The notes beneath the pieces were generated by a model, which worked only from the letters and a program-made list of their open reading frames with translations, was not told the origin of the DNA and made no database searches. From IMG/VR virus record IMGVR_UViG_3300022918_000010: a stretch of DNA of 64,000 nt; one strand, written 5' to 3'. Source of the stretch: a virus. Taxonomy: Duplodnaviria > Heunggongvirae > Uroviricota > Caudoviricetes. The position numbers and the translations under genes are program-made. Below are positions 1,664 to 61,960 of the stretch, piece after piece. Positions within the stretch are counted from its first letter, which is position 1, and every line of letters starts with the position of its first letter.

Positions 1664-1950
1664 TGGAATATATAACTATAGATAATTTAGAACAATTCAG
1701 AAAGGTTTGTCTTATCTATAGGAAACTAGGTAAACTTCCTTTTGTTGATACAAGAGAAATAACAATTTACGATCGTGTTGATCAAGATGAAAGATATAAA
1801 ATCTTTATGTATGCTGATAATAGACATTATTATACTCAGTATTATGATATCAAAAATGGCTTAGCTAATACTGATAGAATAATACCAGCATCATTATTTG
1901 TATGTGAATACTACCTAGATAAACTTGAACAGAAACTTAAAACCAAATAA
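1663..1950 (+). CDS. small protein, paralog family C (C-terminus YLDKLEQKLKTK)
   Basis: C-terminal NLDKLE-type motif. Confidence 0.55.
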   Translation: MEYITIDNLEQFRKVCLIYRKLGKLPFVDTREITIYDRVDQDERYKIFMYADNRHYYTQYYDIKNGLANTDRIIPASLFVCEYYLDKLEQKLKTK

Positions 1951-1951
1951 T

Positions 1952-2278
1952 ATGAAATATTTAATCTTATTTCCATTAAATGGAGAACTTAATTTATTAG
2001 GTACTCTTAATTCTCATTCATATGAGAAAGTAGCTGAAGTAGAAGCTACCAGCATTAGTTGTCTTTTACAGAAAGCTCATGATATGTTTATTGAATCATG
2101 TAATAGAGGGTTATCTAAAGGAGATATAATATTAGAACCACATGATGGAACTTCATATATGATAGAGGATTCAGAAATATCTTTATTATGCAATTGTAAT
2201 CATTTATATGAACATCTATATGATTATGAATATTATGATCATAATATAATTGATCAAGGAAAACATTACTATCATTAA
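1952..2278 (+). CDS. hypothetical protein
   Basis: track ORF 1925-2278; start moved to in-frame ATG at 1952 just after upstream stop. Confidence 0.5.
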   Translation: MKYLILFPLNGELNLLGTLNSHSYEKVAEVEATSISCLLQKAHDMFIESCNRGLSKGDIILEPHDGTSYMIEDSEISLLCNCNHLYEHLYDYEYYDHNIIDQGKHYYH

Positions 2279-9896: not shown

Positions 9897-10198
9897 ATTT
9901 AAAAATTATGTGGGAAAAATTAAAACAACAATGGGGTATACAAAAGAAGTATACTAAAGCTGAATTAGATGTAATTGTAAAAGCAGCTGTTAATGGTACT
10001 ATAGAGGGTACTATTAAATATCTAGAATCAGATAATTTAAAAGCAGTATTTATTAAAAGTGGAAAAGATGTTCCAGGATGTGAGATCGTTCCTACTGGAG
10101 AACATCCAATATTCTTTATAAAAAGAGCTCTAGATGAACAAGGTATTGAATTTACCTTTGATGAAACAGATTTATATGAGTCTGAAGAAGATAAATAG
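9884..10198 (+). CDS. hypothetical protein
   Basis: ORF track. Confidence 0.5.
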   Translation: MVGLNLKIMWEKLKQQWGIQKKYTKAELDVIVKAAVNGTIEGTIKYLESDNLKAVFIKSGKDVPGCEIVPTGEHPIFFIKRALDEQGIEFTFDETDLYESEEDK

Positions 10199-10211
10199 TT
10201 TAAATCAAGTA

Positions 10212-10364
10212 ATGGATTTACTTGATAATGAGAAAGCTAGTTTTTATTCAGGTAGTGATAAAGAAATGGATAATATCTCTAAAGAAGATATTAGAAAGAT
10301 GAAAACTGATGATGTAAGAAACCTAGTAAAAATAGGTCTAATAGTAAGAATAAGCAGACATTAA
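10212..10364 (+). CDS. hypothetical small protein
   Basis: track ORF 10134-10364 trimmed to the first ATG after the upstream stop. Confidence 0.35.
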   Translation: MDLLDNEKASFYSGSDKEMDNISKEDIRKMKTDDVRNLVKIGLIVRISRH

Positions 10365-10365
10365 T

Positions 10366-10545
10366 ATGAATCTAATTAAAGTAATTTTGGCAATTGTAAT
10401 AATATCTTTTGGTATTATACATATTAGTCAACCATCTAACCTTGAAGTATATATAGGTGTAGGTGAAGTAATAATAGCAATGGTGTTATTATATGGTCCA
10501 ATTAAACAATTAATCAAAAACTTAAACAATGAACAACTTTGATCA
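10366..10545 (+). CDS. small 2-TM membrane protein (59 aa), possible SPFH partner
   Basis: unlisted ORF MNLIKVILAIVIISFGIIH...; its 3' end overlaps the SPFH gene start. Confidence 0.45.
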
Positions 10546-11407
10546 AAAGGAATCAGGTATTCCACAACCAGCTAGAACAATTGTAAAGATTCTAGTACCT
10601 CTTATTATTGCAATTATTATATTAGCAGTACAACCATTTACTTATGAGAATGTCGATGCTGGAAATGTAGGGATTAAATTAAATCTTTATGGAACAAATA
10701 GAGGTGTAGATAAGATCACTATTGTTTCAGGAAGAGTGTGGTATAATACCTGGACTACACGTATTGTGGAATTTCCTACATTCATACAAAATGTAGATTA
10801 CAAACCATTTGCAATTAATACTGTAGATGCTGCTAAATTTAATATTGATACAAAAATGCAATATAGAGTATTGTCAGATTCTGTTCCTAGAATATATACA
10901 ACATTTAGATCTTCTCTACAGGAGATACAAGGTGAAGGTAGATATATTCAAACAGCAGTATATGATGCATTTAAGGCTATTGTACCTAAGTATACATCTG
11001 ACTCATTGATGGCTAAAAGATCTCAATTTGAAAGTGAAGTTGAAGTTGTATTAAAGGAAAAACTTGGTTCCAGAGGTATATATTTAGAACAATTGACATC
11101 TAATATAGATCCACCTAGATCAATGGCTGATGCAATTGAGGCTAAGAATGCTAGTATACAAGCTAGATTTAAAGCTGAGAATCAAGCTAAACAAGCTGTT
11201 GCAGAAGCTACAGTAATTAAAGCTAAAGCAGAAGGTGAAGCAGCTGCTACTATTGTTAGAGCTAAAGCAGAATCTGAAGCTAATAGATTAAAACAAGCTA
11301 CACTTACCCCATTATTAGTTGAGATGGAAAGAATACGCCGATGGGATGGTACATATCCAACTACAGTAGCTGGTGCTGGTACTAACTTTTTAATGCAGTT
11401 AAAATAA
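10529..11407 (+). CDS. SPFH/band-7 (HflC/prohibitin-like) domain membrane protein
   Basis: N-terminal TM; VDAGNVGI...G core; C-terminal Ala/Glu/Lys-rich helix AKAEGEAAATIVRAKAESEA typical of HflK/C. Confidence 0.6.
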   Translation: MNNFDQKESGIPQPARTIVKILVPLIIAIIILAVQPFTYENVDAGNVGIKLNLYGTNRGVDKITIVSGRVWYNTWTTRIVEFPTFIQNVDYKPFAINTVDAAKFNIDTKMQYRVLSDSVPRIYTTFRSSLQEIQGEGRYIQTAVYDAFKAIVPKYTSDSLMAKRSQFESEVEVVLKEKLGSRGIYLEQLTSNIDPPRSMADAIEAKNASIQARFKAENQAKQAVAEATVIKAKAEGEAAATIVRAKAESEANRLKQATLTPLLVEMERIRRWDGTYPTTVAGAGTNFLMQLK

Positions 11408-11416
11408 TTAAACGTA

Positions 11417-11446
11417 AACCTGGGGAGTTGTAAAACAAACCAGGTT
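11417..11446 (+). other. hairpin AACCTGG-loop-CCAGGTT
   Basis: 7-bp inverted repeat in the gap between the SPFH and ATPase genes; no T-run. Confidence 0.3.
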
Positions 11447-11461
11447 AATTAAACTAAAAAC

Positions 11462-12490
11462 ATGGATCAAAAATATTTTAAATCAGGAAATAATTATTTC
11501 CTACGTGAAGTAAGTAATGTAGAAGACCCTCTACAAGTAGCACTATATGTGTTACAATTCTCTCCTAAAGAAGGATTTTATTTAGAGAAATCAGCAGAAG
11601 ATTTTCATGTAAATCATAAAATATATGGTAAAGATGAAAAAGCATTTACAGAACGTGTAAAGAAAACATTTAATGCTACCAAAGATAATCTTGGTGTATT
11701 ATTAAATGGAGTAAAAGGTACTGGCAAGTCAGTTCAATTAAAATTAATAGCTAATCATCTTGAGTTACCTATTATTATTATTCCACAAGCTTATGAAGGT
11801 GTAGCAGATTATATTAGTAAAATACCTTATTCAGTTACTCTTGTATTTGATGAGTTTGAAAAAATGTATCCTGCTAACTATAATAACAATGCTGATATAC
11901 TTACAGTAATGGAAGGTGTACTTGCAAATCAATATAGAAGAGTATTCTTATTGACAACAAATAGCACTTATATTAATGATAATCTTCTAGAAAGACCAGG
12001 AAGAATTAGATATCATAGGACTTATGAAGATCTTCCTTTAGAGACAATAGAGGAGATTGTAGATGATCTACTTGAATATAAAGATCTTAGAACTGCTACA
12101 ATTGATTTCTTATCGACTCTTAAAACTATTACTATTGATATAGTAAAGAAAATTGTTGAAGAGGTTAATATCCATAATGAAGACCCTAAAATCTTTGGTA
12201 AATATTTTAATATCAAAAAAGATAGTAAAAAATATGATGTATTAATCATTAATGAGAATGGTACTGAAAAAGTATGGTTTGAAGATGTAGCTTTACCTGT
12301 TTTTGATCCTAAAAAGCCAATTAAAGATCTTAGAGTAAATGGTGAATGGGAAGCTAAAATTATTAGTATTCTTTCTCCAACTATGTTAATTGTTGATGAA
12401 CAGCTAAATGAAAATAATGAACCAGAAGTTCATATTAAGATTAAAATTGTAGATAGAGATAATCTACATAAATCATTTAGAGTTTTCTAG
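11462..12490 (+). CDS. AAA-type ATPase
   Basis: Walker A GVKGTGKS, Walker B LVFDEFEKM, sensor-1 LLTTN. Confidence 0.6.
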   Translation: MDQKYFKSGNNYFLREVSNVEDPLQVALYVLQFSPKEGFYLEKSAEDFHVNHKIYGKDEKAFTERVKKTFNATKDNLGVLLNGVKGTGKSVQLKLIANHLELPIIIIPQAYEGVADYISKIPYSVTLVFDEFEKMYPANYNNNADILTVMEGVLANQYRRVFLLTTNSTYINDNLLERPGRIRYHRTYEDLPLETIEEIVDDLLEYKDLRTATIDFLSTLKTITIDIVKKIVEEVNIHNEDPKIFGKYFNIKKDSKKYDVLIINENGTEKVWFEDVALPVFDPKKPIKDLRVNGEWEAKIISILSPTMLIVDEQLNENNEPEVHIKIKIVDRDNLHKSFRVF

Positions 12491-12521: not shown

Positions 12522-12529
12522 TAGATTTG
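12522..12529 (+). promoter_or_regulatory. TAGATTTG match to Bacteroidota -7 promoter consensus TAnnTTTG
   Basis: exact consensus match in the gap upstream of the first family-C array. Confidence 0.35.
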
Positions 12530-12565
12530 ATGACATGGGAGCAATCCCATGTAAAAACCATAGAT

Positions 12566-12841
12566 ATGAAAACAAAGTATGAAGTAGGAGATATGGCTAT
12601 TATTGTTAGGTATGATAAATATAAAGGAGATAAGTCACAGAATAATATAGGTGAATTGGTTTGTATAACTACAGCTGGAAGCTTGACAAGAGCTCCTCAA
12701 GTTCTTATAGCTGATGATAGAATATTTACACAAGATTCTGTATTTACTTGTGATGTAAATGAACTTTTTCCTATAGAAAAATACATAGAAGTAATAGATA
12801 TGAATTTAGATAAGTTAATAGATAAGTATGGCAAAAGATAA
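12566..12841 (+). CDS. small protein, paralog family C (C-terminus NLDKLIDKYGKR)
   Basis: track ORF 12527 starts with TTG inside the promoter motif; start moved to MKTKYEVGDMAIIV, which fits the family N-terminus. Confidence 0.5.
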   Translation: MKTKYEVGDMAIIVRYDKYKGDKSQNNIGELVCITTAGSLTRAPQVLIADDRIFTQDSVFTCDVNELFPIEKYIEVIDMNLDKLIDKYGKR

Positions 12842-13169
12842 TACAATATTTCAACAAGGTAAATACTATATTATTACAGAATTCAAAAAAGGATATGGTA
12901 AATCTTTTAGTAATATATTTAAAGATCACATATATATATCTAGAAAAAGTGACAATGGATATTTATTTCCAAGACTTGATAGTCTTGGTAGAATAAATTC
13001 TGGTATTCACACTAACTATATAGAAAGTTATAGAGAAGCAACTAAAGAAGAAATAATTAGATATAGAAAGCTAAAGAAACCTTTTGATATTAATGATAAA
13101 TCATATATAATAGATGATATTAATATGTATTTAGATATATTAGAATTAAAATTTAAAGAAGATGAATAA
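12828..13169 (+). CDS. small protein, paralog family C
   Basis: LLKKPFD and YLDILELKF motifs shared with 13162. Confidence 0.6.
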   Translation: MAKDNTIFQQGKYYIITEFKKGYGKSFSNIFKDHIYISRKSDNGYLFPRLDSLGRINSGIHTNYIESYREATKEEIIRYRKLKKPFDINDKSYIIDDINMYLDILELKFKEDE

Positions 13170-13497
13170 TAGATTTAGTCAAGGACAATGTATAGTAATA
13201 ACTAAATTAAATACTAGTTATATATCTTCTAAAGATCAGTATTTGAAAGTTAATCATGTATATAAACAAAGAAAAAATTATAACTGTTTATTACCTATGT
13301 TAGATAGTAATGGTAAAGAAAATACACGTGTACATTTTATAAACCCAGCTAATAATTATGATAATGAATGTAGAGCAGCTACCCCAACAGAAGCTGCTAG
13401 ATATAAGTTACTAAAGAAACCATTTGATGTTTATAATAATGCTTATTTAATAGAAAAGATGTTTGATGATTTAGATAAATTAGAGAAGAAATTGTAA
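13162..13497 (+). CDS. small protein, paralog family C
   Basis: paralog of 12828 (LLKKPFD...DLDKLEKKL). Confidence 0.6.
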   Translation: MNNRFSQGQCIVITKLNTSYISSKDQYLKVNHVYKQRKNYNCLLPMLDSNGKENTRVHFINPANNYDNECRAATPTEAARYKLLKKPFDVYNNAYLIEKMFDDLDKLEKKL

Positions 13498-13844
13498 TGT
13501 TTAAAAGAGGAGAAAGAGTAGTATTAAAGAAATGTGATATAGAAGGTTATAGATTTAACTTTGAATATAACTTATCTAATGATCCTAACACTATAATAGA
13601 TGAATCTGATGATATTTATAATTCACAATATGGTGAAATAGCTAAAGATTGGATAAAAGATAATTCTACTATAGGAGTAAATTGGTATAATTCTAAAGAA
13701 GAAATTATAAATACTAAAGATCCACTTAATATGTATGTTATCGAGTCTAATGGTAATTTAGTAGAAATTGAACATATACAACTGTATTCTATAGATAAAA
13801 TTATTAGTGATTTAGATACATTAGAAAATGGACTTAAAGATTAA
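13497..13844 (+). CDS. small protein, paralog family C
   Basis: MFKRGERVVL ... LDTLENGLKD. Confidence 0.6.
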   Translation: MFKRGERVVLKKCDIEGYRFNFEYNLSNDPNTIIDESDDIYNSQYGEIAKDWIKDNSTIGVNWYNSKEEIINTKDPLNMYVIESNGNLVEIEHIQLYSIDKIISDLDTLENGLKD

Positions 13845-14157
13845 AAAAGGTGATAAACTAAAATTAGTCAAGACTTTAAATTCTAGATATTTTTATCCAG
13901 ATGGAAGATTAAAATTTACTGAATTGATAGATTATCAATATTTTGAAGTTGATAAACATAAACCTTATCCAGATAAAATTAATTGTTCATTTTGTGAAGG
14001 TGAATTTATATTAAAAGATGGTTCTAGATCAAAAACTTATAATGTTAATTATAGAGAAAATAAGGATTTTGGTATTGAAGTAGAATTGTATGATTTAATA
14101 AAAATTGAAGATATAATAAGTAATTTGGATAAACTGGAAAGTAAATATAATGTTTAA
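13828..14157 (+). CDS. small protein, paralog family C
   Basis: KKGDKLKL ... NLDKLESKYNV. Confidence 0.6.
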   Translation: MDLKIKKGDKLKLVKTLNSRYFYPDGRLKFTELIDYQYFEVDKHKPYPDKINCSFCEGEFILKDGSRSKTYNVNYRENKDFGIEVELYDLIKIEDIISNLDKLESKYNV

Positions 14158-14467
14158 GGCTGGAGATAAAGTTAGGCTTATAGTTGATAAAGATAGTAGA
14201 TATTTTAACGAAGATTTAAGTCATGTACATGAAAATTTAATAGGTTATAAGTATGGGATATTAAAGGATAATTTAACTTATATATATGAGGACCCTGGTA
14301 CTGAAAAATTTTATGTTAATTGGTTAGAAATAGGTGGAAACTTTACTAGTGATTGGGGTATATATGATGGATCAAATAAGAAACACAAGTGTGAAATAGA
14401 GTTTTATCAATATGATATAAATAGAATAGTTAAGAATTTAGAGATATTAGAAAGTAAATATGAGTGA
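14150..14467 (+). CDS. small protein, paralog family C
   Basis: MFKAGDKVRL ... NLEILESKYE. Confidence 0.6.
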   Translation: MFKAGDKVRLIVDKDSRYFNEDLSHVHENLIGYKYGILKDNLTYIYEDPGTEKFYVNWLEIGGNFTSDWGIYDGSNKKHKCEIEFYQYDINRIVKNLEILESKYE

Positions 14468-14960
14468 ATTTAAAATAGGAGATATAGTAGTCTCACTTAT
14501 AGATCAAGAATCATCTACTAATCAAGAACCTGTTTCCATAAGAGAAGGTTATGTAGGTGAAAATATATCACCATTAGATAATCAAGTAGTATTCTTTGAT
14601 CAAACAGTGCCTGGAAAAGGATGTTATAAATCAGAGAACTTTAGATTAGCTACTGATGATGAGAAAGAACAGTTTTTGAAAGGAAGAAAAATAGTAGAAC
14701 CTGAATCACCTTTTGAGGAAGGTGATATAATAATAGTGGATACTAATGAGATAATATCAATTGATAAAAAAAATACTCTCAAAAGAGGTGTTATGGGTCA
14801 AATTGATGGTATAGTTAAAACTAAAGACATTAGTAAATCTATGTTTTATTTTGCTTCTACATTATTTGATCAACCACATACTATAGACGGGTATTATAGA
14901 TTGACAGATAAGTTTAGATTAGCTACACAAGAAGAAATTGATAATGAATCAAAACTCTAA
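14460..14960 (+). CDS. two-module family-C-related protein with FRLAT(D/Q)EE motifs
   Basis: two internal repeats, each starting FKIGD and ending FRLATxEE. Confidence 0.55.
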   Translation: MSEFKIGDIVVSLIDQESSTNQEPVSIREGYVGENISPLDNQVVFFDQTVPGKGCYKSENFRLATDDEKEQFLKGRKIVEPESPFEEGDIIIVDTNEIISIDKKNTLKRGVMGQIDGIVKTKDISKSMFYFASTLFDQPHTIDGYYRLTDKFRLATQEEIDNESKL

Positions 14961-15420
14961 ATTTGTAAATAATACTATCATAGTAGCATTGCTAGATATG
15001 AATAGTGTTGATGGTAATGAAAGTATAAAAGAAGGAACTGTAGATAGAGTATCAATATCTGGTAGCAGTGGTAAGTTTAGCTGTGATTGGGTTATTGGAT
15101 TTATAGATAGAAGAGCAACAGAAAGCTACTATAAAGCTGATAAAGAGATCTATTTTAGGTTAGCTACAGAAAGTGAAATTGAAGAGTTTAATAAAAAAGG
15201 AAGATATACAATAGATCAACCTAAATTTAAGATAGGTGATAAAATAGTAGCATTAGATGATATTACTACTACTGAAGATGAGTACTCAGTTAAGAAGGGA
15301 GAAGAAAGAACTATAGAAGATATAATTGTTAATAAAAAAGATATTAATAAATCTATATTTTGGTTTCCTGGACATAAAGGAGTATTTACAATGGAAGATA
15401 ATTTTAAATTAAAAGATTAA
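14938..15420 (+). CDS. two-module family-C-related protein (paralog of 14460)
   Basis: YFRLATESEIEEF and KFKIGDKIVAL repeats. Confidence 0.55.
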   Translation: MIMNQNSKFVNNTIIVALLDMNSVDGNESIKEGTVDRVSISGSSGKFSCDWVIGFIDRRATESYYKADKEIYFRLATESEIEEFNKKGRYTIDQPKFKIGDKIVALDDITTTEDEYSVKKGEERTIEDIIVNKKDINKSIFWFPGHKGVFTMEDNFKLKD

Positions 15421-16511: not shown

Positions 16512-17675
16512 ATGGCTGAAACACAAGACGAAATTATTGAACAATTAGAAGCTAAGGTTCAAGAATATGAGAATTTATTAGAAGAGACTCTTTCTGATAA
16601 AAAAGGATTTGGTAAGATACTAGCAGGTCCTTTTGATCATGATGGTAAGAAGTATTATAGAGTTTCTATAGGAAGTGATATATCAATGGTATATGCTGCT
16701 GAAGTTAGTATGTTTGATGGATCTCCAATTGATCCAACTTTACCTGAAGAAACAGAAGTTATTGTTGTAGGTCAAACTATAGCATGTGTTGTTCCTGAAG
16801 AACTTAAAGTTATTATCGAACCACCAGTATTTGATCTTATTTCATGGTCTGATATAGGTGGATTTAAATCACAACTTCAAATTATCAGAGATGCTATCGA
16901 ACTTCCTATGGTAAATGCTAAGTTAGCAGAAGAATTGGGTGTTCAACCTATCTGTGGTATTCTTTTATATGGAGCTCCAGGTTGTGGTAAAACATATATA
17001 GCAAAAGCTATTGCATCTACAGTACTTGGTGCAACTAGAATTGATCCACAAGCTTTTCAGTATATGAAAGGTGGTGAGATGTTATCTATGTATGTTGGTA
17101 AAACTGAACAGGATATTAAGAATTCATTTGCACAATGTAGAGATTACACTAAACGTACTGGTAAAAAAGCTATTATGTTTATTGATGAAGCTGAAGCATT
17201 ACTTCCTACAAGAGGTAGCAGAAGATCATCTGATGTAGAAACTACTATTGTACCAACATTCTTAAGTGAGATGTCTGGTTTTGAAGGTAATAATCCAATT
17301 GTTATCTTAGCAACTAATAAAAAAGATGCTATTGATGAAGCCATCCTTAGAGAAGGTAGGATTGATATTAAAATTGAGATCAAACGTCCTACAGAGCCTG
17401 ATGCATTAGAGATCTTTGAGATTCATCTTAAGAAACTTAAAACTCATGATGCTGTTGCAGATTTGGCAGAATTTGCATCTTCATCTTTATTTGGATCACC
17501 TGCTGCTAAGAAAGTTAGTGGAGCTATGATAGAAGCTATCTGTAAAGATGCAATACGTAAAACCATGACTAGAGTAATAGCTACTCCAAAAACTAAGGAG
17601 AAAGGAATAACCTTAGATGATATGTCAAAAGCAATAACAGCAATAAATACATCATATGTCACTACAAAAGCGTAA
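16512..17675 (+). CDS. classic-clade AAA+ ATPase (CDC48/FtsH-type module)
   Basis: Walker A GAPGCGKT, Walker B IMFIDEAEAL, second region ILATNKKDAIDEAILREGRIDIKIEI. Confidence 0.75.
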   Translation: MAETQDEIIEQLEAKVQEYENLLEETLSDKKGFGKILAGPFDHDGKKYYRVSIGSDISMVYAAEVSMFDGSPIDPTLPEETEVIVVGQTIACVVPEELKVIIEPPVFDLISWSDIGGFKSQLQIIRDAIELPMVNAKLAEELGVQPICGILLYGAPGCGKTYIAKAIASTVLGATRIDPQAFQYMKGGEMLSMYVGKTEQDIKNSFAQCRDYTKRTGKKAIMFIDEAEALLPTRGSRRSSDVETTIVPTFLSEMSGFEGNNPIVILATNKKDAIDEAILREGRIDIKIEIKRPTEPDALEIFEIHLKKLKTHDAVADLAEFASSSLFGSPAAKKVSGAMIEAICKDAIRKTMTRVIATPKTKEKGITLDDMSKAITAINTSYVTTKA

Positions 17676-28989: not shown

Positions 28990-30084
28990 ATGGTAACTAC
29001 ACAAAACAAATCAGCATTGAAAGAGAAATTAGCTAAAATTAATGAGAAAGAAATCATTAAACCAGGAACACCTCCTGCTAGTGCAGCAGTAATTGATGCA
29101 TCAAAATTTGTATATATTGATCCAACTAAAAAAGCTTTAGAATTATCTTTTAATTGCAATGAGAATATCATTCTTTATGGTAAAGGTGGACATGGTAAGT
29201 CAGAACTTGTTGAATGGTTTTTACATAACAAAGGAATTACTCCATTTGTTAAAACTATGGGTGCTGGTACTACTACAGAAAGTCTATTTGGTGGTATGGA
29301 TATTAAAAAATTCAATGATACAGGTATGTTAGAGTACTTAGTTGAAAATTCATTCATGAATCATGAGTATGTGATTTTTGAAGAGTTAATGGATGCACCT
29401 GATTATATCTTAGAGCAATTGAAAGATATCATTACTTCTAAGAAATTTAGAAATGGTAGTCAAGTATTCCATATCAAAACTAAACTTATAATCTGCTGTA
29501 CTAACCGTACTAGGGATGAATTCTCTAAAAACGATTCATTAAAAGCATTGATGGAAAGGTTTCCTTTAGAGCAAAAAGTAGAATGGGATTCATATAATAG
29601 AACTACTTACGGATTCATGTTCAAAACACTATTTGGTAAAAACTATAAAACTCTTGAATATATCTTAGAGAAATTAGCTCAAGCAGATAGTATTGTATCA
29701 CCAAGGACTGCTGTTAAAGCAGCTAAAATTCTTGATGCAAATGGAGGTGATTATAGCTGTTTAGAATTTATTGCAGATTTTGCAGGTAAAAACCAGAAAA
29801 TGGTTCAAACTGAAATTGCTAAATACAAAACAGTTGAGCAAGTTGATGTTATTATTGATAGTGTTAAATCTATGATGACTCAATGTGATGCTCTTAAATT
29901 AGATACACTTGATAATATCAAAAATGTTAAAACATTATTGCGTAGTATTGATAGTGAAACTAAAACATTAAAAGCTAAAAAAGTTGATGATGATTTAATG
30001 AAAACTATTAATGCAAACACAAGTCAATTTGAGAATTATTTAGTAACTAAAGGTAAAGAGATTCAACATGCTACAGAAGGATAA
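28990..30084 (+). CDS. MoxR-like (AAA_5-type) AAA+ ATPase
   Basis: Walker A GKGGHGKS; FEELMDAPDYILEQLKDII resembles the MoxR DEINRA...LLEAM segment; paired with a downstream VWA gene. Confidence 0.6.
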   Translation: MVTTQNKSALKEKLAKINEKEIIKPGTPPASAAVIDASKFVYIDPTKKALELSFNCNENIILYGKGGHGKSELVEWFLHNKGITPFVKTMGAGTTTESLFGGMDIKKFNDTGMLEYLVENSFMNHEYVIFEELMDAPDYILEQLKDIITSKKFRNGSQVFHIKTKLIICCTNRTRDEFSKNDSLKALMERFPLEQKVEWDSYNRTTYGFMFKTLFGKNYKTLEYILEKLAQADSIVSPRTAVKAAKILDANGGDYSCLEFIADFAGKNQKMVQTEIAKYKTVEQVDVIIDSVKSMMTQCDALKLDTLDNIKNVKTLLRSIDSETKTLKAKKVDDDLMKTINANTSQFENYLVTKGKEIQHATEG

Positions 30085-31312
30085 TAAGAAGTTTTATATT
30101 AATGACCATGATTGGTATTGGACACCAAGTGAGTGGAATGTTGAGTGGAGATTAAAAATGAGAAAGTTGGGCATTAATAATGTCCACTTTGCTCAAGAAT
30201 TATCTAGATTTTATTATCATAAGATGATTCAAGAAAAAGAATATGTTGATCCATATTTTGCAGATGAAACTAAACTTAATGCATTTGAGTTAGAACAAGC
30301 TAACCAGTCAAAGGAGTTTTATGCAAAAATGTGGGACAAATATGTTCCTGGAATGTCTCCTTTAGATAAGGCTTTAAATTTATTAGCTTTACTAAAGAAA
30401 CAACATGATGCATCTGGTGGAGTTGGTGGTCAAAGAGGAAGAAATGAGTTAATGGATGTAGATATTGAGAAAGCTTTGGAACATGTCCCTGAGAAAGAGA
30501 TATTTGAATCCTCTACTCTAAATGAAATCTTTGATCGTAAAGAAGGTTTGGATGACTTTGATAAGAAAATCAATCTTATGAATAAGATTGCTATGGTTGA
30601 AAAGTTTGGTAAAACCTTTGATGTAAAGAAAATCATCTCTGAGAAAAGAGTAACTAATTCTCGTATACACAAACAGAAAAGAATGGTTGAGTATGAAGAA
30701 TTAATTAATTCTCCTTTGTATCAAAAAATACTTCCTAATTATCAAGCCAAATTAATCAGTAAAGATCTAGTAATTAATACTCCTGTAGTATATGAAGAAT
30801 CTAAACAAAAGATTATTATTTTGGTAGATTATAGTGGTAGTATGTCAATGATACAGAAACAAGACTGGGTTTTATCTATATTAGCAGATAGACTTAGATA
30901 TTGTGTCAAAGAGGAGTGTGAGATTTTCTTTAGTTTCTTTTTAACTGCACGTGATGTAAAGAACAAAAACTTTAAATTCACACACATTTATAATAGAGAA
31001 ACAGCTCTTAAGTTCTTCAAAGAATTGAGTACTGCTCCTTCTGGTGGTGACACTGAAGTTGGACATGTAATTGAATTAATCAGAGAAGAGATTATGGACA
31101 ATAAACGTCTATTTAATCTTGATGTTGATTTATCTTTTGAGAAACCTGAAATCTTAGTGATTAATGATGGTCAAGATAGTGTTAAAACTGATAAGTTAAC
31201 ATGGAAGACCAATGCAATTACCTTATATGGTAATAATCCTGAATTAGAAGCCTTATGTAAAAAGACAGGTGGAAAATTTATATCTATTGATGGTAAACAA
31301 GATCATTACTAA
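30068..31312 (+). CDS. von Willebrand factor A (VWA) domain protein
   Basis: C-terminal MIDAS motif ILVDYSGSMS; coupled to the ATPase. Confidence 0.6.
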   Translation: MLQKDNKKFYINDHDWYWTPSEWNVEWRLKMRKLGINNVHFAQELSRFYYHKMIQEKEYVDPYFADETKLNAFELEQANQSKEFYAKMWDKYVPGMSPLDKALNLLALLKKQHDASGGVGGQRGRNELMDVDIEKALEHVPEKEIFESSTLNEIFDRKEGLDDFDKKINLMNKIAMVEKFGKTFDVKKIISEKRVTNSRIHKQKRMVEYEELINSPLYQKILPNYQAKLISKDLVINTPVVYEESKQKIIILVDYSGSMSMIQKQDWVLSILADRLRYCVKEECEIFFSFFLTARDVKNKNFKFTHIYNRETALKFFKELSTAPSGGDTEVGHVIELIREEIMDNKRLFNLDVDLSFEKPEILVINDGQDSVKTDKLTWKTNAITLYGNNPELEALCKKTGGKFISIDGKQDHY

Positions 31313-41798: not shown

Positions 41799-42163
41799 TA
41801 GAAAAAGTAAAATTAACCATAACACAATTAATAGAAAATTTAAATTCAGGATTATCTTGGTTAAAAAAAGATGATAATGGAGCTGGTAGTATTCAACAAA
41901 AGTATGAAGCTACTGATATTCAGATACTTACTATACAGAAACATCCAGCATTAAAAGATGTTCAAGTTACTAAATATATATTTGAAATAGTTGATGATAC
42001 TAAGGCTACGGAAGATGTAGAAGAAAAAGTTTGTGATAATCAGGTAGTTATACCAGAACAACCAACTCCTCCTAGTTTAAGAATGGTTAAAGAAGGTGAA
42101 TTATTACAAAAAGGTCCTGGTATATATCTACATTCAGCTGAAGTAGAACAACAATTACCATAA
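41795..42163 (+). CDS. hypothetical protein
   Basis: ORF track. Confidence 0.5.
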   Translation: MIEKVKLTITQLIENLNSGLSWLKKDDNGAGSIQQKYEATDIQILTIQKHPALKDVQVTKYIFEIVDDTKATEDVEEKVCDNQVVIPEQPTPPSLRMVKEGELLQKGPGIYLHSAEVEQQLP

Positions 42164-43254
42164 TGGAACAAACAAAGTCAGATAGATATATAACTATAGA
42201 TACTAATCTTATTAATAAGAAAGAAGTATTCAAAATGCTGGCTTTAGCTCATTCATCTGGATTACCTGTCTTATTGATTGGTAATCCAGGTACTGGGAAA
42301 ACCAGGATAGCATTGGATTATGCTAAAGCATGGATAATGCAGAATATAGATAAGAGTAATAAACAAGAAATGACTCAAGCTTCTAATGACTATATGGATA
42401 AAGTATATATCTTAGAAACTGATGAAGGTACAAAGGCTTCTGAAATCAAAGGTACTCCTGATATAGAAAACATGTTTATTAATAACAAATACTCTTTAAA
42501 TACTCCTATAGCAGATGCAGAAATTATTATTGTTAATGAAATAGATAAAGCCTCTTCTGCTATTAGAAATAGTTTATTAGGTGTTATGAATGAGAAGTTC
42601 ATATTTAATGGTAAAGAGAAAATACCATGTAAATGGAAGCTTTTTATAGGTGCATGCAATGAGATCCCTAAAGAAGAGGAAGGATCACCATTTTGGGATA
42701 GATTTATTCTAAAGAAAGTAGTTAATAGAATATCTTCTTCAGATGTATTAAAATACTATGAAGGTGGAGAAAAGAGTTATAAAGAATATTTTGATATTAA
42801 CATTCCTACTAAAGAAGAGATTGATGATATAGAAGTAAATTCTAAAAAGTTAAATAAGTTTCTTACTGTAAGTTATAATAAATGTTCTGATAGGACTCTT
42901 ACCTTTATTCCAAAGCTTACTAAAATTATCAGTAAAGTATGGGAAGAGAATATAGATAAATCATTAATTAGATTAGCATCTATTATAGTTGGATCTGCTG
43001 CTGCTTCTGAGCTTCATAATAGTTTAATAAGTACTGAAGTAAAAAGTATATTAAATAAAATCGAAGTATTATATACAGTTACTGATCCTGTAGGAATTGA
43101 GGCTCATATGAATGAAATAGAAGCTTTAATTAAAGGTTATACTGCATCTAAAAAGATTGACAGTGATGATCTAATTATAATTGAAGATGCTATTACAGAA
43201 GTAATGAATAAACATCCTAGTAAAGCTCAAAATGATGATGACACACCATTTTAA
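42163..43254 (+). CDS. MoxR-like AAA+ ATPase (second copy)
   Basis: Walker A GNPGTGKT; IIIVNEIDKASSAIRNSLLGVMNEK resembles DEINRA...LLEAMEE. Confidence 0.65.
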   Translation: MEQTKSDRYITIDTNLINKKEVFKMLALAHSSGLPVLLIGNPGTGKTRIALDYAKAWIMQNIDKSNKQEMTQASNDYMDKVYILETDEGTKASEIKGTPDIENMFINNKYSLNTPIADAEIIIVNEIDKASSAIRNSLLGVMNEKFIFNGKEKIPCKWKLFIGACNEIPKEEEGSPFWDRFILKKVVNRISSSDVLKYYEGGEKSYKEYFDINIPTKEEIDDIEVNSKKLNKFLTVSYNKCSDRTLTFIPKLTKIISKVWEENIDKSLIRLASIIVGSAAASELHNSLISTEVKSILNKIEVLYTVTDPVGIEAHMNEIEALIKGYTASKKIDSDDLIIIEDAITEVMNKHPSKAQNDDDTPF

Positions 43255-44608
43255 AAAAGAGTTAGTAAGTCCTTATCTACATGAGATGGATAGTAATGCA
43301 TTAATTAATGCTATTAATGCTTATATCAATGATAATTCTAATAATAAGAAGTTTGTTCAGTTAATAACTAAATATAAGAAGACTGAAATACTTTCTCCAG
43401 ATGATATATTTAATCAAATAAGACAAATCTGGAGATCTTTTCCAAGATCAATTGTCAATGATATATATAATATATATTATAATCATATTGAGAATTTAAA
43501 GTTTGAACAAAGAACAGAACAAAATGGTAGTAAATATAGATTACTTGATAAAGCAAATGATCCTAATATAAAAGTTATTACTAATAATAATAGTATTAGA
43601 TCTATGATCTTTACTAGAGGACTTGTCCAATATTATTTAATTATGTTATCTACTATAGAGCAGTATGATAATGATAGTTTTCATGAGATAATGAAAGATC
43701 TTAAAGATAAAAGTGGATCTGCTGGATTAGAAGAGTTAAATGACTTACTTGAAGAACAAAATAGTTGGAATAAAATTATAAGTAATACTATTGATAAGGA
43801 CTCTAAGGAAAATATTGAAGAACTTTCTAAGATATATACTGAAAATGAGTTACAAGAAATGTGGGAAGAGTTAAAAATAACTACTGTTCCATCAAATGTT
43901 ATTAATAAAATGAATCTTCAAAGTCTTAAATTATTAGGATATGAGCTTAAAAAAGTAACAATGAGTCTTGGTTCTTTACAATCAAGTATTAAAAAGATAC
44001 TTAATAAGTCTATATCTTACTTTTCTTCTAAAGAAGAAGTTATTTATAATAATTTATTAGAAAGTGATAATTTGGATGGTTTAGAAGATTATCATTTACT
44101 TCATCCTAATTTAAAGAAATTATTTATTAATGACATCTTAGTAAAAGATGTAAAAAAAGTAGGTAAGGTAGATCTATATTTAGATGTATCTGGATCTATG
44201 GATGCATGGTCAGGATCTTACAATAAAGAAGGTAAATCAATTACTAAAATACATTTTGCTAAAGCATTCGTATTTAAGATGAAAGAACTAAACCTTATTA
44301 ATGATCTTTATGTTTTTGATACAGTTGTAGATAAGACAGGAAAAAGTATTCATGATATACTTTCTATAGAAAGTGGTGGAGGTACAAATATTAATGAAGT
44401 AGTTAAGCATATATCGAAGATTAATAGAAATGCAATTGTTCTTACTGATGCTGAAGACCATTGCAGTCTATACTCAAAATATACATATTTTATTGGAGTA
44501 AAAGGTGCAAATTTTAGCAGATTTGCTAATGGAGTAAAAAAACAATATGTTGAAAACAAACAAATTATAATATTTGATGGAATTAAAGTAGAAAATGTTG
44601 TTAAATAA
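43232..44608 (+). CDS. VWA domain protein (second copy)
   Basis: MIDAS motif LYLDVSGSMD in the C-terminal third. Confidence 0.6.
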   Translation: MMMTHHFKKELVSPYLHEMDSNALINAINAYINDNSNNKKFVQLITKYKKTEILSPDDIFNQIRQIWRSFPRSIVNDIYNIYYNHIENLKFEQRTEQNGSKYRLLDKANDPNIKVITNNNSIRSMIFTRGLVQYYLIMLSTIEQYDNDSFHEIMKDLKDKSGSAGLEELNDLLEEQNSWNKIISNTIDKDSKENIEELSKIYTENELQEMWEELKITTVPSNVINKMNLQSLKLLGYELKKVTMSLGSLQSSIKKILNKSISYFSSKEEVIYNNLLESDNLDGLEDYHLLHPNLKKLFINDILVKDVKKVGKVDLYLDVSGSMDAWSGSYNKEGKSITKIHFAKAFVFKMKELNLINDLYVFDTVVDKTGKSIHDILSIESGGGTNINEVVKHISKINRNAIVLTDAEDHCSLYSKYTYFIGVKGANFSRFANGVKKQYVENKQIIIFDGIKVENVVK

Positions 44609-44634: not shown

Positions 44635-44923
44635 CTTTAATTTTGTTATCTACATTTATATCTCCAGAATTTGTTGTTGCTACTGGAGTAGGACTGGCAT
44701 TCATAGTTGCTATCAACTCATCCTTTTTATTAGCTCCTTGACTGCTACCGAAGTAATATTGTAATACATTACTCATTGCAGCTACTATAGCAATTATTAC
44801 TTGAGGATCAGCTTTACGTTCATAAAAAGTAATTATAAAGAAATAAGCAAATGAGGATACAATTACTGTTGCTGCTAATATACCTTTAAAGTTATCTGGA
44901 ATCCATTTAAATCCTGTTTCCAT
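44621..44923 (-). CDS. holin-like membrane protein
   Basis: 2 TM plus hydrophilic C-terminus; adjacent to the hydrolase. Confidence 0.45.
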   Translation of the reverse strand: METGFKWIPDNFKGILAATVIVSSFAYFFIITFYERKADPQVIIAIVAAMSNVLQYYFGSSQGANKKDELIATMNASPTPVATTNSGDINVDNKIKEKGE

Positions 44924-45465
44924 TATGATTCATTTGATGATAAAGAACCAGTCTCATTAAGATATATTTTTCTTACACCTGCTGGTTGTGATGTTTTCCA
45001 ATGTGCTCTACGACATCCTTTTAGTCTATCTTTTGCTATAAATGCAAATCCAACAGCATTAGATTGGTTACCACCATATACTAAAAAAGCATTATCATTT
45101 TCTCCAATATAATATCCAACATGTCCACCACCAGGTCTAATAAATACTAAAGTATCTCCAAGAGATTCTTGACCTTTAGGTACAGCATCACCCCATGTTA
45201 ACCATGATAATGCAGAAAGTAGATCATATTTAGGTTTTTCTAACCAACCAGTTCTTTTAGCACATACACCTTTAAATAAACCACACCAAGGTATATCATC
45301 ATCTCCATACCAACCTGATACACCAACTTCTTTGGCCCAACTGGTTATATTAGGATTTGATCCTTTACCTACTTTTTCTAAAGTACCATAATGCTTTAAA
45401 GCTTCTTTTAATTCTAATGGTCCACTTTCTTTAAGTAACCATTGATATTTATTTGGTAGCATCAT
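44923..45465 (-). CDS. phage cell-wall hydrolase, TIGR02594/CHAP-NlpC-P60-like
   Basis: GSNPNITSW...DIPWCGLF...WLTWGDAV...GGGHVGYYIGE...YGGNQSNAV...GCRRA matches the TIGR02594 pattern (Cys/His). Confidence 0.75.
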   Translation of the reverse strand: MMLPNKYQWLLKESGPLELKEALKHYGTLEKVGKGSNPNITSWAKEVGVSGWYGDDDIPWCGLFKGVCAKRTGWLEKPKYDLLSALSWLTWGDAVPKGQESLGDTLVFIRPGGGHVGYYIGENDNAFLVYGGNQSNAVGFAFIAKDRLKGCRRAHWKTSQPAGVRKIYLNETGSLSSNES

Positions 45466-45745
45466 TTTTATCTTTTTGTTCTAATTGATTTAGTTTTTGA
45501 ATTAGAGCCCATTTATCTTTGATGAACTTGAGATATAAATCTCCACCACCAAATATCCAACAGAATATTATTGCAAAACTAAGTACAGATCCTAACCATG
45601 TACGTTGTACTAATGATAATTCTAAGTATCCTTTAGTTATTACTGTAAGTACAGCTATCATGTTTGGTAACAATACAGCAGAAATTGGACGCATTATTTG
45701 TATAAAGCGTAGTAACCAACTTGATTTCTCTTTTTCTGTATTCAT
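45449..45745 (-). CDS. small membrane protein (holin/antiholin-like)
   Basis: 2-3 TM; charged C-terminus. Confidence 0.45.
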   Translation of the reverse strand: MNTEKEKSSWLLRFIQIMRPISAVLLPNMIAVLTVITKGYLELSLVQRTWLGSVLSFAIIFCWIFGGGDLYLKFIKDKWALIQKLNQLEQKDKNDATK

Positions 45746-45747
45746 TA

Positions 45748-46377
45748 TTAACCATCTTGTTTTAATATCTTATATCGGTTACGTTTTTTAAGTCTCAACC
45801 ACTCAAGAAATAGAGTTAAACTAATGAATATGAATCCAAGACCTAATATTAAATATATTGCTAAATCACGTACTGTTATTATTAAGTTAGTCAATCCCTG
45901 TGATATTTTAGTTGCTTCTATATTAGTATTTTCAATTCTATTTACTGCGGATTGTAAAGAATCAATTCTTTTATCTTTAACAATTGATTGTAATAAAGAA
46001 GAATCTCTTTCTGTTGATGCTTTTTGATATTCTAATGTTTCTATATATCTTAAATTATTTATACTGTCTAACCTTTTACTTTGTCTTTGTAAGACGAATG
46101 TTAATGTAGATATATCTTTATAATTTGAGTTTTTTAAATCATCAGTATAAGGTTGTATAATACTAGCTATATATCTCCTAAAGGAAGTATCACGTTGAGC
46201 TTGTTCTTTTTTTGAAAGAGGTTGTCTTTCTACATATTTTATAACTGTATCTTGTTTTAAATGTATTAATGTTGTAGATGGTTTACTTTGTGTAATGCCT
46301 CCTCTTGTAGAAAATGCACAACTTACTACGATACATATAAAAGATACAATTAGTACTTTTTTCATCATTGCTATCAT
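45748..46377 (-). CDS. membrane-anchored coiled-coil protein (N-terminal signal/TM and C-terminal TM)
   Basis: hydrophobic N- and C-termini; could be a spanin-like component. Confidence 0.45.
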   Translation of the reverse strand: MIAMMKKVLIVSFICIVVSCAFSTRGGITQSKPSTTLIHLKQDTVIKYVERQPLSKKEQAQRDTSFRRYIASIIQPYTDDLKNSNYKDISTLTFVLQRQSKRLDSINNLRYIETLEYQKASTERDSSLLQSIVKDKRIDSLQSAVNRIENTNIEATKISQGLTNLIITVRDLAIYLILGLGFIFISLTLFLEWLRLKKRNRYKILKQDG

Positions 46378-46378
46378 A

Positions 46379-46942
46379 TTAGAGAAAAGGGATAAATTTT
46401 TTAAACAAACCTGTCTTTATACCAATCCCCAACAATAATACCAAACCAATGCCAATATATGTAAAGGTTAATTTATTTTTTGCAGATTTTAATTCTAAAT
46501 TTCTTACTTTTAAATTACTTTCTGTAATATTAAGCTGTTTAAGTGCTGTATCTCGTTCTACTTTTAACATAGATTCTAATTTAAGATCTCTAATATTATT
46601 AGTAATTGTTCTAGTAATTAATTTTTCTTTTGTTTTTACTGGATAATCAACTGTTAGAATCCCATTTTTACTAGTTACTGTAGCACCATTACTTGTTTTT
46701 TTAGTAAAATCAGGACATGGGGTATCTACAGTGTCTCTAATAATAGAATCCTTAGTTAAATATGTTATACTATCTTTAGAAATAGTTACAGTATCATTAA
46801 CACAAATCTTTAAATCTTCAATTAAGTACTTTTGTACTGCATTAAATGTTTTAGGATCTGTTTTAATTTTCTTTAAAGTACGATTAACTGAACTACATGA
46901 TGACAATATTAGAAGTAATAGTAGTATTATTGTTGGTTTCAT
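46379..46942 (-). CDS. lipoprotein with C-terminal TM segment
   Basis: MKPTIILLLLLILSSCSS lipobox; C-terminal IGIGLVLLLGIGI. Confidence 0.5.
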   Translation of the reverse strand: MKPTIILLLLLILSSCSSVNRTLKKIKTDPKTFNAVQKYLIEDLKICVNDTVTISKDSITYLTKDSIIRDTVDTPCPDFTKKTSNGATVTSKNGILTVDYPVKTKEKLITRTITNNIRDLKLESMLKVERDTALKQLNITESNLKVRNLELKSAKNKLTFTYIGIGLVLLLGIGIKTGLFKKFIPFL

Positions 46943-46947
46943 GATTA

Positions 46948-47238
46948 TTAAGCTATACTATCAAATAATATAAATTCTCTATATTTACCTTTTGGTCTTT
47001 TCTTAGAAGCAATAAGTGAGTTTGGTAAAACATCACAACAGGCTCCTGATACTTGATAAAAATAATGTAGACCATTAGGATGATATCTACGTGAATCATT
47101 ACCATCTGGTTGATCTGGAGTACCTAAGATTTCAATAAGTTCACATTTACATGGATCTTTAAGGTAACCTCTAAGAGTAGATGGAATAGGGAAGCCCAAT
47201 TCGTCTTTTAATGCAAAATATCTTAATTTTTTTGCCAT
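46948..47238 (-). CDS. Cys-rich hypothetical protein
   Basis: track ORF trimmed to MAKKLRYF start; CKC...CC motifs. Confidence 0.4.
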   Translation of the reverse strand: MAKKLRYFALKDELGFPIPSTLRGYLKDPCKCELIEILGTPDQPDGNDSRRYHPNGLHYFYQVSGACCDVLPNSLIASKKRPKGKYREFILFDSIA

Positions 47239-61933: not shown

Positions 61934-61960
61934 TGGGGGAGTTAATCCCCCATTTTTATT
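61934..61960. terminator. bidirectional rho-independent terminator between convergent genes
   Basis: TGGGGGA-GTTAA-TCCCCCA perfect 7-bp stem, flanked by T-runs on both strands. Confidence 0.7.

Follow-up and report, generated by a model that had tools for sequence, protein, structure and literature searches.

A phage SPFH protein gene and an overlapping gene for a two-helix membrane protein as a probable mobile two-gene module

SPFH scaffolds such as prohibitin, stomatin, flotillin and HflK/C are universal, and their partners and clients in bacteria are poorly known. HflK/HflC-FtsH has a historical tie to phage biology through lambda lysogeny, and the SPFH domains of QmcA and FloA face the cytoplasm. 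Both the presence of SPFH genes in phages and SPFH operons with small membrane partners are already known. NfeD-type partners are thought to aid SPFH oligomerisation or anchoring (PMC13086221), and the SPFH protein of the PspA-YdjG-YdjH-YdjI system of Bacillus subtilis needs small integral membrane proteins from its own operon for its membrane function (PMC8581546). Kayvirus carries an SPFH gene, mbpS, together with the holin-like mbpV between lysK and tgl, and their function has only been speculated upon (PMC7150955). Here we describe an SPFH locus in a 64,000-nucleotide stretch (hereafter the window) of the Caudoviricetes record IMGVR_UViG_3300022918_000010 of IMG/VR. It consists of a small open reading frame (ORF) for a protein with two transmembrane (TM) helices, an overlapping SPFH (Band-7) gene and a downstream AAA ATPase gene (Table 1). 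A preliminary description had read the three genes as a trio on the FtsH-HflKC paradigm. We find it probable that positions 10366-11407 constitute a mobile two-gene membrane module instead, with the ATPase gene flanking the slot which the module occupies.

Homologues of the SPFH protein fall into three tiers: the exact protein on a 137.8-kb contig, phage-like relatives of 58-89% identity on contigs of 60-160 kb, and many cellular proteins of 53-58% identity from Pedobacter, Mucilaginibacter, Dyadobacter and related genera. The ORFs are intact at 58-91% identity in several distinct phage contigs of that size range. A first scan of viral contigs with a single window protein gave no match, nor did a megablast of a 3-kb stretch of the locus against phage genomes. 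A scan of one genome per species gave 77 cellular loci and a viral-contig scan gave 80 loci. A script counted abutting upstream two-TM ORFs of 40-110 aa, with the other ORFs of at least 150 aa within the same loci serving as controls. Such an ORF abuts 158 of the 161 SPFH genes, as compared to 20 of the 1037 control ORFs. Two of the three misses are artefacts, since the SPFH gene of locus L090 is frameshifted with the small ORF still there, and the ORF of L061 is over-extended at its start. The distance from the partner end to the SPFH start varies from -27 to +35 nt across the loci. The phage relatives (L002-L008, L011, L090) each have a 53-77-aa two-TM ORF abutting the SPFH start; gene callers usually leave it uncalled in them, as in most metagenomic relatives. 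A hidden Markov model (HMM) built from nine partners recognises all 78 cellular loci and 9 of the 10 close phage loci. As position, size and topology are kept in nearly all loci, far beyond what the controls yield, the small ORF can be considered a genuine, conserved partner co-encoded with the SPFH gene, in agreement with the preliminary description.

Two of the loci deserve separate mention. L090 (5989-6834) is an IMG/VR relative of 88% identity in which the SPFH gene is split over three frames next to an intact partner ORF, due to either an assembly error or a pseudogene state. L001 (MT836585.1, “Bacteriophage sp.”) is the best INPHARED match to the SPFH protein. Its SPFH gene has the lipobox FISC/TT and is among the few lacking an upstream two-TM ORF. 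As this record is unannotated and has neither phage-like neighbours nor the small ORF, it was rejected as a guide to the phage context.

The pair is located on the chromosomes of Sphingobacteriales and Cytophagales in the 77 genome loci of the species scan. An accA homologue was found near the SPFH gene in 22 loci, all Pedobacter-type, and in 21 of them it was located downstream on the same strand; in Pedobacter it follows the pair directly. This position marks a stable chromosomal locus in Pedobacter. In this genus as in Dyadobacter, Mucilaginibacter and their relatives, the pair appears to be inherited vertically. In Pedobacter endophyticus it sits between SusC/SusD and accA.

The phage copies are found in unrelated surroundings. 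SPFH orthologues (58-91% identity) in eight other phage loci have no further gene in common with the window. Conversely, the loci with the closest ATPase relatives, L175 (59% identity) and L174 (58%), share 8-9 flanking genes with the window, ATPase included, but not the window-type SPFH gene. The synteny covers the ATPase gene, the downstream 166-aa, 133-aa and 387-aa AAA genes and several upstream genes. The slot between a 76-aa backbone gene and the ATPase gene is filled differently in the three genomes: by the two-TM partner and the 292-aa SPFH protein in the window, by a 75-aa one-TM protein and a 404-aa SPFH protein in L175, and by a 74-aa one-TM protein and a 77-aa soluble protein in L174, where SPFH is absent. 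The 404-aa protein of L175 is not an orthologue of the window SPFH protein (Band_7 30 bits, phrog_11908, no BLASTP similarity). The 76-aa gene is homologous to positions 2022..2225 of L174 (44% identity, E=5e-14), while its likeness to 2125..2313 of L175 is by eye only, with no tblastn match at E<=1e-4. Because the orthologue loci lack shared neighbours, and L174 and L175 keep the ATPase gene without this SPFH gene, the pair is the mobile unit and the ATPase gene belongs to the lineage backbone. The latter is a conserved gene flanking the cassette and not a demonstrated component of the module.

The genomic context of the locus is phage-like, as the preliminary description assumed. The GC content of the window pair (0.30) is close to that of the phage (0.25-0.30) and differs from that of the cellular loci (about 0.43), and the window SPFH protein belongs to a phage clade of 70-89% mutual identity. 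The transfer between host and phage is therefore old, with the gene maintained in phages since. The nearest relatives suggest that the host likely belongs to Sphingobacteriales or a related Bacteroidota group. In two phage SPFH proteins, P0013 (L011) and P0014 (L007), the N-terminal halves resemble the cellular clade and the C-terminal coiled-coil halves (alignment columns ~200-300) resemble the window phage clade. Such a mosaic suggests intragenic recombination.

In the small protein the loop HISQPSNLE separates two hydrophobic segments. The basic C-terminus of this protein and a Lys/Arg residue at its N-terminus predict an N-in/C-in topology, so that the conserved loop motif S-x-P-S-[N/D] would be periplasmic. 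The preliminary description had assigned 59 residues (10366-10545) to this ORF; the two TM segments were found as described, but the protein has 58 residues and the ORF ends at 10542, its TGA stop (10540-10542) lying 14 nt inside the SPFH gene. This overlap with the SPFH start, which the description had noticed, results from the SPFH ATG at 10529 falling within the small ORF. The motif N[IL]S[EQ]PS[ND]xxVxIGVxEV is common to the window partner, other phages and Pedobacter; the corresponding segments are GIIHISQPSNLEVYIGVGEV in the window and GVNNISQPSNLKVWIGVGEV in P. endophyticus. Related loops are present in remote clades: VSYPSNTLVAVGFIG in L235, GVSKADT in the gut-phage clade and LVSAKDTISVIGG in Klebsiella phage K54_rec6. 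Within the Pedobacter/phage clade the second TM helix carries a nearly invariant Glu (GVxEV; E34 in the window), along with P23, S24 and G31. This Glu is missing in the distant gut-phage clade.

The small protein has no match among Pfam, NCBIfam, PHROG and PADLOC families and no sequence match in the PDB. In particular, none of nine partner-family members matched Pfam NfeD at E<=1. The family is rare among called proteins, a set of 5.8 billion clustered proteins containing only 25 members. When 1.84 billion representatives were searched with a profile, there were 33 matches, one of them a repetitive false positive; the remaining 32 are all stand-alone proteins of 53-86 aa and none is fused to an NfeD domain. 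The NfeD/YuaF-like identity put forward in the preliminary description had to be dropped, as the family is stand-alone, gives no NfeD match and is too short for an oligonucleotide/oligosaccharide-binding (OB) fold. The same stand-alone sizes rule out a truncated or mis-split NfeD protein.

The 292-aa protein was correctly recognised beforehand as an SPFH/Band-7 protein. Thus neither of the two outcomes named in the preliminary description as refuting it, a partner lacking conservation or a 292-aa protein lacking a Band_7 match, came about. It matches Pfam Band_7 (PF01145) over residues 42-227 with 78 bits against a cut-off of 23.6 (E=1.2e-21) and phrog_200, annotated as “lipoprotein”, with E=4.5e-52. 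Its best PDB sequence match is prohibitin-1 (E=2.3e-9). The monomeric AlphaFold2 (AF2) model (pLDDT 74) consists of an anchor helix (~13-34), strands and helices (87-194), a 74-residue helix (197-270) and a disordered C-terminal tail, that is, of the anchor, alpha/beta SPFH core and long coiled-coil helix expected of the superfamily. Foldseek matched this model to chains of PHB1/2, HflK/C, stomatin, QmcA-YbbJ, flotillin, erlin and vault, all of them ring or cage formers; at E<=0.001 there were 47 matches, each to a member of the SPFH family or to major vault protein. The HflC-like identity suggested earlier is not borne out. The HflK/HflC equivalog models score low (24 bits against a cut-off of 159 for TIGR01933, 14 against 660 for NF008181) and there is only one SPFH gene, with no K/C tandem and no SPFH genes among the flanking ORFs, so HflK/HflC was rejected.

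A signal peptidase II (SPII) lipobox, e.g., LASC/TRIDAG, is present in 77 of 78 distant viral SPFH homologues, and the SPFH genes located near ATPase genes bear such lipoboxes as well. The lipobox Cys of L010/L075 (AISC/QPFTYENIDAG) aligns exactly with the TM-helix end of the window SPFH protein (ILAVQPFTYENVDAG). Basic residues precede this helix, and Lys/Arg residues flank the cytoplasmic ends of both proteins. From the lipobox position and the basic residues we infer export of the SPFH domain to the periplasmic side, the anchor being an uncleaved signal anchor in this clade.

These data can be combined into the following model. The first gene would encode a 58-aa helical hairpin of the inner membrane with cytoplasmic termini and a short periplasmic loop. 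Translation of the second gene would be coupled to it through the 14-nt overlap, giving a prohibitin-like SPFH protein whose uncleaved signal anchor leaves the SPFH domain and the long coiled-coil helix in the periplasm. By analogy with prohibitin, HflK/C, QmcA, stomatin and flotillin, the SPFH subunits would most likely assemble into a periplasmic ring or cage at the membrane surface, fencing off a membrane patch. The partner loop would be positioned beside the membrane-proximal part of the SPFH domain, and the hairpin protein could act as a stoichiometric membrane-embedded co-subunit, anchor or client, in place of NfeD or YdjG/H. Phages of Pedobacter-type hosts would carry the pair as a cassette at unrelated genome positions, in the window occupying a variable slot directly upstream of the backbone ATPase gene. 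Since the same pair is a host chromosomal locus, the phage copy most likely supplies or boosts host-type membrane organisation, membrane-protein quality control or turnover during infection. Our confidence is high for the genomic and structural part of this model, moderate for cage formation and the partner–SPFH contact, and low for any specific physiological role.

The ATPase adjoining the pair is an AAA-type protein with canonical Walker A and B motifs, as previously described. It scores 29 bits with Pfam AAA (cut-off 21.2) and matches phrog_2376 with E=6e-55; this family has 567 uncultured homologues. Walker A (GVKGTGKS), Walker B (LVFDEFE), sensor-1 (TTN) and the arginines of the second region of homology (SRH; ERPGRIR) are invariant in 22 homologues. 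The AF2 model (pLDDT 82) comprises an N-terminal beta domain, the AAA core and a C-terminal beta domain, with no TM helix. Its top Foldseek matches are Bcs1, YjoB, NSF/Sec18 and the AAA domain of FtsH (6u1y_C at E=2.3e-9, plus 8t14, 6sh5 and 7w42), so among the AAA clades its modelled fold is closest to Bcs1/YjoB. A search for hydrophobic segments found none in the window ATPase or its homologues, and a Bcs1-type membrane anchor is therefore absent. Neither a Pfam match to Peptidase_M41 nor an HEXXH motif was found in the sequence. An FtsH-type AAA protease was rejected, as the AAA module is present while the TM helices and the M41 protease are absent. The trio model on the FtsH-HflKC paradigm is thus not supported.

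The partner, the SPFH protein and the ATPase could still form one machine, a phage analogue of HflK/C-FtsH or prohibitin-m-AAA acting in microdomain remodelling or proteolysis control, and this was the reading of the preliminary description. The SPFH and ATPase genes are adjacent on the same strand, 54 nt apart, the ATPase belongs to the classical AAA clade like FtsH and the m-AAA proteases, and in L175 a different SPFH gene with its own small TM partner is found directly upstream of the closest ATPase relative. However, the window ATPase had no tblastn match in any of the 168 loci surrounding SPFH homologues, among them 8 close phage orthologues and 78 cellular loci. The ATPase HMM found nothing near the SPFH gene in phages Piffle, K54_rec6, MSA6, Riley, Magneto and SSE121. 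L174 retains the ATPase without SPFH, and three more AAA+ genes in the window make a single adjacency less remarkable. Finally, with the SPFH domain in the periplasm and no TM helix in the ATPase, the two proteins would be in contact only via short cytoplasmic tails. We therefore consider the trio unlikely, though it is the first of the alternatives to the two-gene module.

The reverse comparison, starting from the ATPase, covered 82 ATPase loci (30-59% identity, +/-4 kb) scanned with seven diverse SPFH queries. Twelve of them contain an SPFH gene of one of two non-orthologous types, on the ATPase strand and no more than 4 kb away, in about nine distinct arrangements; for distant loci the share is about 12%. 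It is directly upstream of the ATPase gene in L175 and L235, directly downstream in L184 and L250, and within 0.4-2 kb in L229-231, L237, L240, L241, L248 and L249. About 2-4 loci would be expected by chance according to our own rough estimate, which does not replace a proper null and takes at most ~40% of ATPase-bearing phages to have SPFH (from taxon counts), genomes to be ~140 kb long and placement to be random within half a genome. Isolated genomes yielded no usable null distribution of SPFH-ATPase distances: SSE121 has no ATPase within 6 kb of its SPFH gene, and ECGD1 has two ATPase paralogues and no annotated SPFH in a 47-kb stretch. The excess is suggestive of a functional link between SPFH and ATPase, but a shared early-gene module or an insertion hotspot could produce it as well.

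The second phage SPFH type, of 404-422 aa (phrog_11908), is encoded in L175 (2315-3762), L237 (5121-6654) and L241 (417-1878). It lies near the same ATPase family in these three distant loci and is always preceded by a 75-98-aa one-TM coiled-coil protein with weak holin/Rz-spanin-like matches.

A homologue of the window SPFH protein is present in 762 phage records, and similar gene arrangements are present in isolated phages. In Salmonella phage PhiSH19 (Kuttervirus, JN126049; L258) an unannotated 72-aa two-TM ORF (1932-2150, minus strand) overlaps the SPFH lipoprotein gene by 4 nt; it corresponds to phrog_11680, which has no annotated function. In Prevotella megaphage Lak-B1 an 83-aa two-TM ORF precedes the SPFH gene by 25 nt, in Stenotrophomonas phage Piffle a 45-aa one-TM ORF overlaps the SPFH gene by 8 nt, and in Kayvirus MSA6 MbpV (102 aa, one TM) overlaps mbpS. 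The two-TM protein of Klebsiella phage K54_rec6 is encoded one gene further upstream. Small upstream membrane proteins are also encoded in Bacillus phage Riley (one TM helix) and Caulobacter phage Magneto (several TM helices). What recurs in these phages is the architecture, and we do not claim common descent of all the partners.

T4 Imm is a small protein with two TM helices, and the partner resembles it in architecture. It is conceivable that the pair acts against other phages or against host defence at the inner membrane, either by superinfection exclusion that blocks DNA transfer or by protecting the membrane from abortive-infection effectors. The periplasm-facing membrane surface is the site of injection, and the cassette is moron-like, occurring at varied positions in many unrelated phages. 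Still, neither PADLOC nor the Pfam superinfection-immunity families gave a match, so the partner was not accepted as an immunity protein by family. The annotated “superinfection exclusion protein” near the PhiSH19 SPFH gene was considered as the partner and rejected, being a separate soluble acidic protein. The position of the pair as a core chromosomal locus beside accA in Pedobacter points first to cellular physiology. We regard this role as doubtful and rank it just after the trio.

A role in lysis timing, in which the SPFH protein would organise or restrain a partner resembling a class II holin or an antiholin, is quite improbable. Class II holins are small proteins with two TM helices and a basic C-terminus, an architecture that fits the 58-aa protein, and the L175 partner of the 404-aa SPFH type gives weak holin/spanin-like matches. 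The Kayvirus gene order, with mbpS and mbpV between lysK and tgl (PMC7150955), also speaks for such a role. No endolysin or other lysis gene was seen beside the pair in the window or its relatives, however, where the neighbours are related to replication and nucleotide metabolism, and in 78 bacterial species the orthologous pairs belong to the chromosomal core. Least probable of all is a neutral passenger status, with a piece of host DNA captured recently and playing no part in infection: the closest non-phage relatives of the pair are indeed host-type chromosomal genes (53-58% identity), but at least 7 distinct phage contigs conserve the two ORFs in intact form, the GC content is phage-like and far from the host range, and analogous cassettes exist in hundreds of phages.

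Several points weigh against our reading of positions 10366-11407 as a mobile two-gene membrane module. The median ratio of non-synonymous to synonymous substitution rates (dN/dS) over the partner core is 0.44, which is only moderately low. The partner HMM recognises just 6 of the 78 loci of the distant viral clade, where homology of the partners is argued from position, topology and the short loop motif GVSKADT. The upstream membrane protein is not uniform among isolated phages, some of which encode a version with a single TM helix or with several, or place it a gene farther off. The 12 ATPase loci with an SPFH gene nearby exceed what is expected of purely unrelated neighbours. A literature search found no functional study of a phage SPFH gene, and both the partner–SPFH contact and the role in infection are inferred.

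Table 1. Features of the SPFH locus (window positions).
Feature	Position	Strand	Basis or remark
76-aa backbone gene	10134..10364	+	Upstream edge of the insertion slot; stop 1 nt before the small ORF
Small membrane partner, 58 aa, two TM helices	10366..10542	+	ORF list, stop included
SPFH/Band-7 protein, 292 aa	10529..11407	+	Pfam Band_7, phrog_200
Intergenic hairpin	11417..11446	+	Folding energy against shuffled sequences; in the 54-nt spacer between the SPFH and ATPase genes
Classical-clade AAA ATPase, 342 aa, soluble	11462..12490	+	Pfam AAA, phrog_2376

The window has a GC content of ~28% and nearly all of its genes are on the plus strand, with the ORFs between 10134 and 12490 packed tightly. 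The hairpin between the SPFH and ATPase genes is present where it had been reported, though it is weak: an outer stem of 7 bp and an inner stem of 3 bp, a folding free energy of -12.4 kcal/mol and z=-2.2 against shuffled sequences. A terminator scan did not call it, and an intrinsic terminator was rejected because of the absence of a T-tract. At best the hairpin is a weak terminator or an RNA-stability element.

Directly 3' of the ATPase gene (12527-15420) there are about eight co-directional ORFs of 104-166 aa, parts of which are kept in L174 and L175. Several share a similar acidic C-terminal motif (DDLDKLEKKL, SDLDTLENGLKD, SNLDKLESKYNV, KNLEILESKYE) and two hold repeated “FRLAT..E” segments, so the run looks like a tandem paralogue array. 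The three further AAA+ genes of the window are located at 16512-17675, 28990-31312 and 42163-44608. One of them encodes a strong classical AAA protein (PF00004, E=1e-30) and is syntenic in L174 and L175. MoxR-like ATPases (bpMoxR/AAA_5) are encoded by the two others, and each of these genes overlaps a downstream ORF (414 aa in one case, 458 aa in the other) that gave no Pfam match and may encode a MoxR partner. At ~44900-47000 and 61956-63968 the GC and AT skews change sign and the ORFs are on the minus strand; these are the sole interruptions of the otherwise all-plus-strand window.

Overall, what is new here is the partner family, its near-obligate linkage to SPFH, the movement of the pair between hosts and phages, and the annotation gap around it. 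One SPFH clade is always paired with a two-helix micro-protein of ~55-70 aa that gene callers and annotators usually miss, and the two genes move together among the chromosomes of Bacteroidota and several phage lineages. The gap is systematic, as the unannotated ORF of PhiSH19 and the uncalled ORFs of most metagenomic relatives indicate. Two small genes in culturable Pedobacter offer a minimal testable system for asking what nucleates or anchors SPFH cages and for what reason they are found in phages. We also speculate, giving it only a small chance, that the hairpin is the first recognised member of a widespread, largely unannotated class of SPFH co-subunits which replaces NfeD in periplasm-facing cages of Bacteroidota and many phages and, in large phages, is functionally tied to the Bcs1-like phrog_2376 ATPase. 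The repeated placement of two non-orthologous SPFH types beside this ATPase, before or after it and in about nine independent arrangements, is compatible with such a tie. If so, the class together with the ATPase would be a phage counterpart of prohibitin/m-AAA or HflKC/FtsH spanning the inner membrane.

Among known systems, the SPFH-NfeD operons (QmcA-YbbJ, FloA-NfeD, FloT-YuaF, PH1511-PH1510) likewise combine an SPFH gene with a gene for a small membrane protein in a tight operon, and QmcA-YbbJ (8z5g) is among the fold matches of the window SPFH protein. They differ from the window pair in that its partner is a bare 58-aa hairpin with neither an OB-fold NfeD domain nor a ClpP domain, from a family never exceeding 86 aa, and is encoded first, overlapping the SPFH start. 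The SPFH domain itself would be periplasmic in the window protein, as opposed to the cytoplasmic one of QmcA and FloA. In the B. subtilis PspA-YdjGHI system the partners have no sequence relationship to the window partner, YdjI is cytoplasmic and, unlike the window SPFH protein, has no anchor of its own, and no PspA homologue was seen at the window locus.

HflK/HflC-FtsH resembles the window protein in the N-terminal anchor and the periplasm-facing SPFH domain and gives strong fold matches (7vhq, 7wi3, 9paw, 9cz2), but the window has a single SPFH gene scoring 24 against 159 bits and no adjacent FtsH-type protein. Prohibitin PHB1/PHB2 is the top match by sequence (E=2.3e-9) as well as by fold (9o9z, 8rrh, 9unl), with the same layout of anchor, SPFH domain and long helix. 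The identity is only ~20%, and in the bacterial or phage setting the assembly would be a homo-oligomer in place of the prohibitin hetero-oligomer. For the ATPase, the closest systems are Bcs1 and YjoB (6u1y_C, 7w42), with which it has in common the classical AAA core with SRH arginines, while it lacks the N-terminal TM anchor, has its own N- and C-terminal beta domains and belongs to the phage-specific phrog_2376.

The closest phage system is PHROG 200 itself, e.g., Kayvirus MbpS with MbpV, of which the window SPFH protein is a member (E=4.5e-52). A small membrane protein is likewise encoded upstream in MSA6, Piffle, PhiSH19, Lak-B1 and K54_rec6, and only the Kuttervirus version of it is in a PHROG (phrog_11680), the partner family being otherwise undescribed. 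Unlike its phage relatives with a lipobox, the window SPFH protein has an uncleaved signal anchor, and it is far nearer to the chromosomal genes of Pedobacter (53-58% identity) than to any isolated phage (<40%).

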